This document shows, piece by piece, positions 30,401 through 31,834 of a stretch of DNA of 64,000 nucleotides (position 1 is its first letter; each line of letters starts with the position of its first letter). The stretch is taken from NCBI GenBank assembly GCA_039621445.1, contig CP154954.1:44371847-44435846 (forward strand), in the 5' to 3' direction. The DNA comes from Euglena gracilis (taxonomy: Eukaryota). The position numbers and the translations under genes were made by a program. Below the pieces are notes generated by a model. That model was not told where the DNA came from and searched no databases. It saw nothing but the letters and a program-made list of their open reading frames with translations.

Positions 30401-31834
30401 ATGACCCTTGGGGTCATAAATGGGATTTAACATGTCGGATGGACCACTGACCGGTCAAAGCAGGGTCCTGGGTCTGAACTCCACGCCAAACGCATCAAGT
30501 CACCACGTCCTACAATTGCTGTTGGGGACGGCAATTGTTTGATAAGGCTTTGCTGGTCCGTTGCACGCCCCGAACCGCAAGCAGTGGGGAAAGGAACGCC
30601 TGCCATGCGGAACCCTTTGCGTGGGCCCGGCCCTTTTGGTCCGCTGTCCCCGTGCCATCCCCAAGGCAGGGGGAGGGGTGGGGCCCCAGCCGCACCGCAG
30701 CCCGGCGCACCCCCGGCCAGGGCCCCGTAGATCGGGGTCAGGCTGGGCGGGTCTGCAGTGGGGGTTGGGTCGTCCTCCGCCTCTGTTGTTGTTGTGGCTG
30801 AGGAGGAGGCCGGGGCCACGCTTCCGTTCCCGGCGCGTCCCAGAGCGCGTGGGGGGATGGCGACCGAGGGGTCGACAGGGGGACGATGGCCGGAGAAGGG
30901 GAGCCTGGGCGGGGGGAGCTGCAGGGTCAGGGGGACGGGGTCCGGGCTGGACCACATCGCTGGGACGTAGTCCCAGTCCCAGTTGGGGCCGGGCTGTTCG
31001 CCCTCCGGGACCTCGGCAGGCCCGGTCCCCCCACAACACAATGGTTTGGTGGGGATCCCGCCCTGGCCAGCCCCACTCCCTCTCAATGGGGTCTCCAACG
31101 TGGCCGACCCAAATGTGTGATGGGCCGTGGCCACCGTCACGGGGGGGGGGGCTAGATGGTCGCGCGCATTCGGAGCGAGACTGAAGTGCCCCCCCCCCCG
31201 ACAGGTCAACAGCCATGCCAATCCCACACTGCCAGCGACTATCCAACGAGACAGACACATGACAAATCACCCCCGCTACCAATGTGGCCCTGGCCTGGGC
31301 TACGTTGCGGCCTTCCGGGACGGGCCCAGGGTTCCATATAAAGGCAGGACGAAGGGTTGGACCCCCCCCTCCTGCACAGTGGCGCTGTCCGGATGACCGA
31401 ATTTCGGCCTGAGGAAAGCGCCGGGCCGAAAATTTTGCACCCCAAAATCGGCCAAAAATGCCAATTTTGGGGCATTTTTTTTGGGCAAAAAAAAATGGCA
31501 CAAAATTTTCGGCACAAAGCGCCGGGAGGGAAAATTTGACCATTTTGGGGGTGTCCCGAGACCCACCCCGGGGTCAGTCCGGGGGGGTGTCCATACCCCT
31601 CCACTGGTCCGGGAGGGGGGCACTCCCCCTCCTCTAGCCCATACACCCTCCTTATATCGAGCCCTGGGCGGGCCCCCACCACCGCTGGTCGTCCTCCCAC
31701 TCCCGCCCCGGCTCCGGCTTCCCGTTCTGGAACCGCCTCCGCCGCTCCAGCGCCTGCAGCATCTTTTGCCTGCCTGTCAGTTCCGGCGGTGCGCCACTGC
31801 CCGCGGGCGGGGGCAGCTCGGGAGGGCTGGACAT
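450..31834 (-). CDS. Large multi-exon gene (or two adjacent genes) encoding a mostly low-complexity protein with probable LOTUS/OST-HTH repeats
   Basis: Candidate ATG at 31834 (MSSPPELPPPAGSGAPPELTGRQKMLQALERRRRFQ), just after a pyrimidine-rich tract and AG. GC-rich exon-like islands follow at ~31011-30700, 29760-29640, 27780-27670, 25810-25646, 24411-24246, 23386-23300, 22320-22108, 20990-20840, 20560-20460, 18780-18670, 17772-17715, 15330-15200, 10950-10850, 10620-10440, 6200-6000 and 744-450. Several junctions join in frame. Whether it is one gene and where it ends are not resolved. Confidence 0.4.
8364..10411. mobile_element. 2-kb non-autonomous TIR element with 8-bp TSD (hAT-like)
   Basis: TIR CAAGCACCTATA/TATAGGTGCTTG. 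Perfect TSD GCGGCAGG (8356-8363, 10412-10419). Subterminal (TTTTCGGCCA)n arrays at both ends. Confidence 0.85.
9155..9680. repeat. 18-bp minisatellite (CATCTGCATCTTGTCCAG)
   Basis: More than 20 degenerate tandem copies, inside the 8364-10411 element. Confidence 0.9.
11040..12780. repeat. ~730-bp tandem duplication with G-rich minisatellite (GGGGAGTGTGGGGTGACAGT-like)
   Basis: The block starting GACAGTGGGGGGCTGATGTGGGACAC recurs at ~11226 and ~11960. 11041-11120 recurs at ~12678-12760. Confidence 0.9.
12750..12990. repeat. (CA)n microsatellite; others at ~2540, 4450, 7700, 14700, 21300, 36660, 40450, 46760 and 52530
   Basis: Directly visible. Confidence 0.97.
15812..16045. mobile_element. 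hAT-like MITE (degenerate TIR), nested in another repeat
   Basis: CAGGTTT...AAGTCTG. TSD CCCCTGGC/CCCCTGAC (7/8). The right end resembles 34700-34734. Confidence 0.65.
16440..16725. mobile_element. hAT-like MITE
   Basis: 14-bp perfect TIR CAGGGGTTTTTTTA. Perfect TSD ATTCCAAC. Confidence 0.9.
17715..25810 (-). CDS. Exons encoding 2-4 LOTUS (OST-HTH)-like repeats
   Basis: Spliced translation VRARLRRYPKGVLGKQFRAL...IALLGF|HSLWALLHSMPDLIVI. Second copy RQIMRECMQWHPEGMLLLDLPVL...YTWRDLLLGMPDLVSL. Partial copies DGFNYLRDLLQR and YLQMNQQGLLGRQLAGL. These resemble the LOTUS pattern (L..xP.Gl...l....y......lGF.sl.dlL.smPD.v). Recognised by eye, no HMM run. Confidence 0.55.
21599..22107 (-). other. 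Nonconventional/intermediate intron (non-GT start, AG end)
   Basis: CGC|agc CCG...CGG gccag|GTC TTC. In frame LGR|VFP. Confidence 0.5.
23387..24245 (-). other. Nonconventional intron
   Basis: CTG CC|atc CAGGGCGGGG...CCCCGCCCTG cgacc|A CCG CAG. Perfect 10-bp end pairing and in-frame LP|PQDVDLFE. Flanks CTGCCATC/CGACCACC match 5/8. Confidence 0.75.
24412..25645 (-). other. Nonconventional intron containing the inverted TACA microsatellite
   Basis: TTC C|gcc GTGGCCCGGC...GCCGGGCCAC tcgcc|AC TCG. Perfect 10-bp pairing at +4/-6. Joins GF|HSLWALLHSMPD. Confidence 0.7.
24551..25555. repeat. (TACA)n/(TGTA)n microsatellite in five alternating inverted blocks
   Basis: Directly visible. Switches occur mostly at TACGTA/TGTACA palindromes. 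Confidence 0.97.
27000..27132. repeat. ~65-69-bp tandem duplication
   Basis: GATGTAA.GCTGGCTGGAGCGGTGGA...AGCAGCCAAACTGAATAAATCACTGGGC...GCATCAC occurs twice. Confidence 0.9.
31322..31669 (-). other. Nonconventional intron that is a hAT-like MITE plus one TSD copy
   Basis: Minus strand: GGG CCC|gcc CAGGGCTCGATATAAGG...CCTTTATATGGAACCCTG ggccc|GTC CCG. Removal gives in-frame WWGP|VPEGRN. Confidence 0.75.
31327..31666. mobile_element. hAT-like MITE inserted in an exon
   Basis: TIR CAGGGTTCCATATAA/TTATATCGAGCCCTG. TSD GACGGGCC/GGCGGGCC (7/8). Same family as 42396-42898 and 39074-39473. Confidence 0.85.

Follow-up and report, generated by a model that had tools for sequence, protein, structure and literature searches.

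A 340-bp non-coding element with CAG...CTG ends and a flanking 8-bp duplication was found in the first coding exon of a minus-strand gene of Euglena gracilis, and the mRNA of this gene lacks the element together with one copy of the duplication. The element occupies positions 31327-31666 (coordinates exact) of a 64,000-nucleotide stretch of contig CP154954.1 (assembly GCA_039621445.1; positions 44,371,847 to 44,435,846 of the forward strand), which was analysed as a whole, is referred to below as the window and supplies all positions given here. The removal is best explained as nonconventional splicing of a transposon insertion, by which one duplicate is lost from the mRNA and the reading frame is restored, and this explanation is considered very probable. 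A second, unrelated element in the neighbouring gene is skipped in the same way.

The element, which is classified as a transposable element of the miniature inverted-repeat type (MITE), was delimited by a repeat search, a scan for its ends and comparison with family relatives. It starts with CAGGGTTCCATATA and finishes with TATATCGAGCCCTG, and 12 of 14 terminal positions are complementary; the repeat search gave inverted arms of 25 nt at 80% complementarity. The left terminal inverted repeat (31327-31341; 12/14, paired with the opposite arm in the predicted RNA fold) and the right terminal inverted repeat (31652-31666; repeat search, end scan and RNA fold) correspond, in the sense orientation, to the intron's 3' end and 5' end, respectively. 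On the plus strand the duplications read GACGGGCC (31319-31326) and GGCGGGCC (31667-31674), which correspond to the downstream copy GGCCCGTC and the upstream copy GGCCCGCC of the minus (sense) strand, respectively. The two copies agree at seven of eight positions, and the sole mismatch is at position 7 of the duplication (31668 G vs 31320 A). A preliminary description made from the sequence alone had reported an 8-bp target-site duplication with one mismatch in its last 3 nt, and this reading of the flanks was correct. The terminal letters are CAGGG on both ends, which we take to fit YARNG, the end consensus of hAT transposons. The 8-bp duplication and the CAG ends point to a hAT-type affiliation. 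Stop codons are present within the element in the frame of the gene, and read-through into it leads to a stop after four more codons (open reading frame 31652-32104).

Removal of the element from RNA was examined in four public runs mapped to 29000-36500 (7.5 kb), namely X1 and X4 (transcript contigs from two studies), X21 (raw RNA reads from a third study, of which about 5% was read) and X20. The kind of run X20 is not stated, and it is taken to behave as genomic DNA because all 30 bins are covered, introns included. X1 and X4 were treated as transcript assemblies because the spliced leader is present and the introns are missing. A joint from 31320 to 31669 was identified that skips 348 nt (340 + 8), corresponding to the element and one duplicate. 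This joint is carried by one contig of X1 (depth 25.9), one contig of X4 (depth 18.3) and three raw reads of X21 with three distinct starts, and it was not found among the X20 contigs (0). In bin 31259-31509, the RNA coverage in X1, X4 and X21 equals 21 nt multiplied by the contig depth or the read number, and therefore the covered part of the bin is the microexon that follows the element, to the exclusion of the element's left 183 nt. The flanks are thus transcribed as joined exons in X1, X4 and X21, and removal of 31322-31669 joins WWGP to VPEGRN with the frame open, as the preliminary description had foreseen on both points. The runs X2, X3 and X5-X19 contained a fraction of 0.09-0.14 of the sampled window words, about the exon-only level, and no conclusion was drawn from them.

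Transcripts of this kind might also arise from an allele or paralogue that lacks the element (an empty site), or from somatic excision of the element from DNA, rather than from RNA splicing. At least two haplotypes are present: the divergence of the X20 contigs from the window is about 2% in unique stretches of 29000-36500 (e.g., 9 differences in 457 nt), whereas the RNA contigs are identical to it, which points to a second haplotype or strain behind the X20 differences. Contig assemblies drop rare variants, and an empty allele could be missed in them. However, no X20 contig holds the joined form. The exon pieces of X1 and X4 show no differences from the window and match it at 31761, 31766, 31771 and 31828, four sites of difference in the X20 contig, so that it is the element-bearing haplotype that the RNA matches. 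In the other haplotype, too, the right end of the element adjoins the exon, and X20 contig 7 (31547-32003) crosses this junction. Moreover, three other non-GT/AG introns are missing from the same transcripts, as is a second element in the neighbouring gene; one empty allele is insufficient to explain all of these. Excision of hAT elements from DNA usually leaves footprints rather than an exactly restored site. An origin of the joint from an empty site or from somatic excision is considered very unlikely.

The structure of the host gene was established from the same contigs. The host mRNA lies on the minus strand and is represented in X1 and X4 by the pieces 31843-31669, a piece of 21 letters, 31010-30910, 30810-30719 and 29763-29699. 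Past 31843, 10-12 loose letters are attached to the contigs, and their reverse complement corresponds to the 3'-terminal letters of the spliced leader of Euglena gracilis (PMC6242988; primer in PMC5654406; here and below, statements on cited papers refer to their accessible portions). The last G of the leader overlaps 31843, which places the trans-splice acceptor AG at 31844-31843, downstream of a C-rich tract. The locus is a spliced-leader trans-spliced nuclear gene with its ATG at 31834, and its five exon pieces, joined by coordinates, form an open frame of 148 codons. Exon 1 (31670-31842), defined by the contig piece 31669-31843 and the spliced-leader loose end, contains the ATG (31834-31832) and 55 codons ending in WWGP. 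Exon 2 (31301-31321) is a microexon of 21 nt encoding VPEGRNV; it forms the shorter side of the joint (21 letters in X1, X4 and X21) and occupies contig positions 188-208. Exons 3 and 4, also taken from the contigs, lie at 30911-31011 and 30719-30811, respectively.

Three further introns, all on the minus strand, separate these exons. Intron 2 (31012-31300) is a nonconventional intron of 289 nt (GCC-CAG...CTG-CCGAG) that has no duplication and occurs as a single copy in the window; its borders, given by the adjacent contig pieces, leave at most one ambiguous letter, and its spacers are 3/5 or 2/6. Intron 3 (30812-30910) has 99 nt, non-GT/AG borders and the start GCC-CAG, and five letters fit both sides of its joint (30810 to 30910). 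Intron 4 (29764-30718; joint 29763 to 30719) has 955 nt, starts with GGC-CGG and has unambiguous non-GT/AG borders. A CGG variant of the intron start, as in intron 4, has been reported (PMC12501133). The 3' end of intron 4 is atypical, with CCT rather than CTG or CCG at -8 to -6 and CTG at -5 to -3. Three of the four introns, with starts at 31669, 31300 and 30910, share the first seven letters GCC-CAGG, and only intron 1, which contains the element, belongs to a repeat family. The microexon of seven codons lies between two nonconventional introns. Exons 2 and 3 both open with GTCCCGGA (8 nt, then A/G, then GG), an unexplained direct repeat whose copies are 310 nt apart. A nested insertion was considered for this repeat and dropped, as no inverted ends adjoin the repeats between them.

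These introns also bear on the possibility that the joint is an artefact of reverse transcriptase, which might switch template across a strong hairpin with flanking direct repeats of 7 nt. The element offers the features that favour such switching, namely direct repeats and a very stable hairpin. However, the joined form is the sole one assembled in two studies and the sole one in the raw reads of the third, whereas artefacts normally make up a minority. Within the same mRNA, intron 4 is free of repeats and has unambiguous borders, and intron 2 leaves one ambiguous letter at most. The frame stays open in the joined form alone. Knock-in genetics with a protein-level read-out have shown that such introns are removed in vivo (PMC12501133). 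Template switching is regarded as a most improbable source of the joint.

A noncanonical splicing code of Euglena has been defined by knock-in genetics, in which CAG/CTG, spacers of 3 nt and 5 nt, adjoining complementarity and a purine at the start of the 3' exon suffice, and synthetic introns of 50 bp designed on these rules were spliced (PMC12501133). Under the 3/5 rule, the joint 31320 to 31669 defines a nonconventional intron 1 of 348 nt (31322-31669, minus strand), which starts with GC and ends with CC (GCC-CAG...CTG-GGCCC) and is non-GT/AG; this is the N3 placement among those from N2 to N9 that the RNA allows. The positions of CAG at +4 to +6 and of CTG at -8 to -6 (spacers GCC and GGCCC, respectively) fall within the ambiguity of the joint. 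In a check of the eight allowed placements, none starts with GT and none combines a GC start with an AG end; GT...AG splice sites of the introner type are absent among the placements allowed for the 348-nt intron. The mRNA base at the mismatch of the duplication is that of the downstream duplicate (31320; A on the plus strand, T in the sense orientation, within a Val codon), and cuts 0 or 1 nt before CAG are therefore ruled out. This base fits the 3-nt/5-nt border rule, under which the preliminary description had predicted the last 3 nt of the upstream duplicate to be intronic and free to drift. The downstream exon begins with a purine, which is G (31321, sense) in this gene and A in the second case described below. 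A folding energy of -206 kcal/mol was computed for the intron and its flanks (z = -6.9; none of 100 shuffles as good), and the predicted minimum-energy and centroid folds both pair the inverted ends of the element.

A mechanism can be proposed in which a 340-bp non-autonomous DNA transposon, with CAG...CTG inverted ends and an 8-bp target-site duplication as hAT-type hallmarks, inserted in the first coding exon of the trans-spliced gene. The gene would have remained unbroken on this proposal, the ends of the element already forming the euglenid nonconventional splicing signal, that is, CAG at +4 to +6, CTG at -8 to -6, adjoining pairing that joins the ends and a purine that opens the downstream exon. 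The cut would be made 3 nt before CAG and 5 nt after CTG; as 3 + 5 = 8, the RNA would lose the element plus the length of one duplication, and the frame that preceded the insertion would return. The ends are palindromic, so splicing should work in either orientation. The pathway is probably non-spliceosomal and circle-forming.

The element belongs to a dispersed family. Its interior is 77% identical over 168 nt to that of a sibling copy of 503 bp (42396-42898; sequence alignment and end scan), and the ends match too. The sibling has a different, perfect 8-bp duplication, GTTCAGCC (42388-42395 and 42899-42906), and the assignment of both copies to one family in the preliminary description is thereby upheld. 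Further, more degenerate relatives were detected at about 39089-39473, 28141-28327, 44067-44216 and 48533-48583. With at least five related stretches in the window, the family is dispersed, multi-copy, small and non-coding. In X20, the word depth is about 30 in the flanks and reaches 358-468 over 31327-31666, although word depth does not equal copy number. Past mobility is suggested by the structure of the element and by its dispersed copies.

The window was also scanned for elements with CAG...CTG ends of at least 11/14 complementarity and an 8-bp duplication with at most one mismatch. Eight elements were found (4809-5468, 16440-16725, 31327-31666, 33402-33816, 37975-38250, 41016-41300, 42396-42898 and 63444-63887), five of them with perfect 8-bp duplications, whereas 200 dinucleotide-preserving shuffles gave a mean of 0.045 elements and a maximum of 1. 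The elements 16440-16725 and 37975-38250 are related to each other (about 72%). A scan for exact 8-bp duplications without the condition on terminal letters gave 206 matches. A (GTAT/GTAC)n microsatellite at 24.7-25.5 kb accounts for 201 of these and poly-G for one, which leaves four, each of them a CAG...CTG element. When the duplication had a length other than 8, CAG was absent from the six commonest terminal triplets in this termini-agnostic scan, which was swamped by the microsatellite. A search of metagenomes with the end motif gave 119 loci with one match each; blastn in three of them recovered the 20-nt motif alone, and these loci were dropped as chance matches.

The family and the scan bear on another explanation, in which the intron is a genuine nonconventional intron that never was a transposon, its 8-nt repeat stemming from double-strand-break repair at intron gain and similar sequences having spread otherwise, for example by reverse splicing of circles. 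Break repair has been favoured for a young nonconventional intron of gapC with direct repeats of eight nucleotides (PMC4770533), and circular excised introns, which reverse splicing would use, have been reported (cited in PMC11282704 and PMC12501133). However, the sibling 42396-42898 shares both ends and interior with the element yet has a different perfect 8-bp duplication. The eight elements of several families in 64 kb, with the same ends and an 8-bp duplication, bear the signature of cut-and-paste transposition with a fixed staggered cut, whereas break repair predicts neither a constant repeat length nor family-specific inverted ends. An origin by break repair or reverse splicing is considered unlikely, and insertion of a transposon is preferred.

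The second case is a 415-bp element (33402-33816) with the duplication CTTGCTCC, which is removed as a nonconventional intron of 423 nt (33397-33819, minus strand). The joint 33392 to 33816, at which nine letters fit both sides, skips 423 nt (415 + 8) and is present in X1, X4 and seven reads of X21 and in no contig of X20. The host is the neighbouring upstream gene (32514-36500, minus strand), which has four GT-AG introns besides. No similarity between 31327-31666 and 33402-33816 was detected by blastn. The preliminary description had presented the 340-bp element as a second, independent family acting as an in-frame intron, and the precise skipping of the dissimilar 415-bp element agrees with this. 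It had further suggested a general property of CAG...CTG elements with 8-bp duplications; both such elements within the mapped 7.5 kb are spliced, which supports the suggestion on the basis of two of the eight elements in the window. The word depth of the 33402-33816 family in X20 is about 12,500, compared with about 30 in the flanks.

Several observations weigh against the explanation by transposon insertion and nonconventional splicing, or narrow it. Seven letters fit either side of the joint 31320 to 31669, so that intron starts from 2 to 9 nt before CAG are allowed and the cut is not pinned down. The raw reads for this joint number just three, from about 5% of one run, and the runs X1 and X4 are labelled only 'RNA?'. 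In bin 31510-31760, X1 has about 350 depth-nt beyond the share of exon 1, and some RNA contig is thus placed on the right part of the element, from either a relative or an unspliced precursor. No empty-site allele was found in the X20 contigs (one genome-like run). Of the 191 window frames that are open for at least 130 aa, 132 were scanned against Pfam; no hAT domain was found among them, and neither was a transposase or an autonomous partner. The copies of the family in the window are only 71-79% alike, and the family is therefore old. Introns 2-4 of the host gene are nonconventional, single-copy in the window and without clear duplication; lacking family and duplication, they indicate that such introns are not all visibly transposons, and that old ones can no longer be recognised as such. 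Finally, a search for homologues of the exon-1 peptide (55 aa) among longer proteins gave 66 candidates and none at E <= 0.01, so that the gene is left unnamed, and Pfam gave no family for either of the two exon-bearing frames of the host gene.

Other features of the window were recorded. The loose end of the transcript beyond 29699 (30 letters) was not found in the window with up to three mismatches; either the next exon is located beyond the window or a joint falls within these letters. Among the window frames scanned against Pfam, the sole real match is to tetratricopeptide repeats, which form a run at 51776-53026 on the minus strand (TPR_12, E = 1e-18), and a weak TPR_10 match (47842-48477, minus strand) lies 3.5 kb from it. 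A scan of the window with Rfam gathering thresholds gave no matches. The long (GTAT/GTAC)n microsatellite (24700-25550) is open in all six frames, with up to 570 codons, and (AC)n and (GT)n tracts are present at 36639-36871 and 46762-46939, respectively. Repeats of very high depth in X20 were found at 29251-29752 (60,000-123,000) and 34522-34772 (about 9,400), where RNA reads enter poly-C loose ends.

The old idea that Euglena introns originate from transposons is supported by the 31327-31666 locus. Where the nonconventional introns of euglenids come from has been described as a mystery ever since they were discovered. A MITE origin of nonconventional introns was proposed in 2014, when no transposable elements had been identified in euglenid genomes (PMC3935182). 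In a 2024 review, CAG/CTG are called 'TIR' and the junction repeats 'TSD-like' (PMC11282704). In a 2025 study the origins of the introns 'remain unclear', and a MITE origin is a hypothesis offered because of the inverted repeats (PMC12501133). Nonconventional introns make up about 70% of the introns of E. agilis, and 84.4% of E. agilis introns, with flanking direct repeats, were set aside before the motif was derived (PMC12501133). In the literature searched, with subscription journals and PDF supplements outside view, no paper was found that links nonconventional introns to identified repeat families, to hAT transposons or to an 8-bp duplication equal to the spacers. To the MITE hypothesis the locus adds a spliced intron from a dispersed family, a near-intact 8-bp duplication, a sibling copy and an unrelated family next door. 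The asymmetry of the 3-nt and 5-nt spacers would receive a simple reason, namely 3 + 5 = 8. The standing hypothesis can now be counted genome-wide, and the repeat-flanked introns set aside earlier in E. agilis are the informative ones.

A wider proposal, to which we give about even chances, is that the splicing code is an RNA-level mirror of hAT-type insertion, that most nonconventional introns are decayed hAT-like MITEs, and that a device neutralising that superfamily was the original form, or the source, of the excision system. If this proposal is true, insertion of such elements into coding exons would be nearly free of cost whatever their orientation, and the intron gain that continues in euglenids would be explained. 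As a practical tool, the excision code could also serve for self-removing insertions.

Three known systems are comparable with this locus. The nonconventional introns of euglenids (PMC12501133, PMC3935182 and PMC4770533) share non-GT/AG borders, the CAG/CTG positions, the 3/5 spacers, terminal pairing and the purine of the 3' exon with the intron described here; GT-AG introns in neighbouring genes and trans-splicing of the host mRNA to a spliced leader are also shared. The intron described here differs in that it can be recognised as belonging to a dispersed family and retains a nearly intact 8-bp duplication. MITEs of the hAT superfamily (Ac/Ds-like) resemble the element in their 8-bp duplication, short inverted ends starting with CAG, small size, lack of coding capacity and dispersal in many copies. 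Partial splicing of maize Ds from transcripts is known (Giroux et al. 1994, as cited in PMC3935182), whereas the removal from RNA found here is exact (the element and one duplicate) and appears to use a non-GT/AG system rather than cryptic spliceosomal sites. A further difference from hAT MITEs is that no transposase partner of the element was found among the window frames scanned. Introners, known from Micromonas, Aureococcus, dinoflagellates and others (PMC11282704, citing Huff et al. 2016), are likewise DNA transposons whose insertion creates an intron and leaves the frame restored, and their target-site duplication supplies part of the splice signal (PMC11282704). They are spliceosomal, with sites of the GT/AG type and duplications of 3-5 nt (PMC11282704), whereas the element described here carries both signals in its inverted ends and has non-canonical borders and a duplication of 8 bp.

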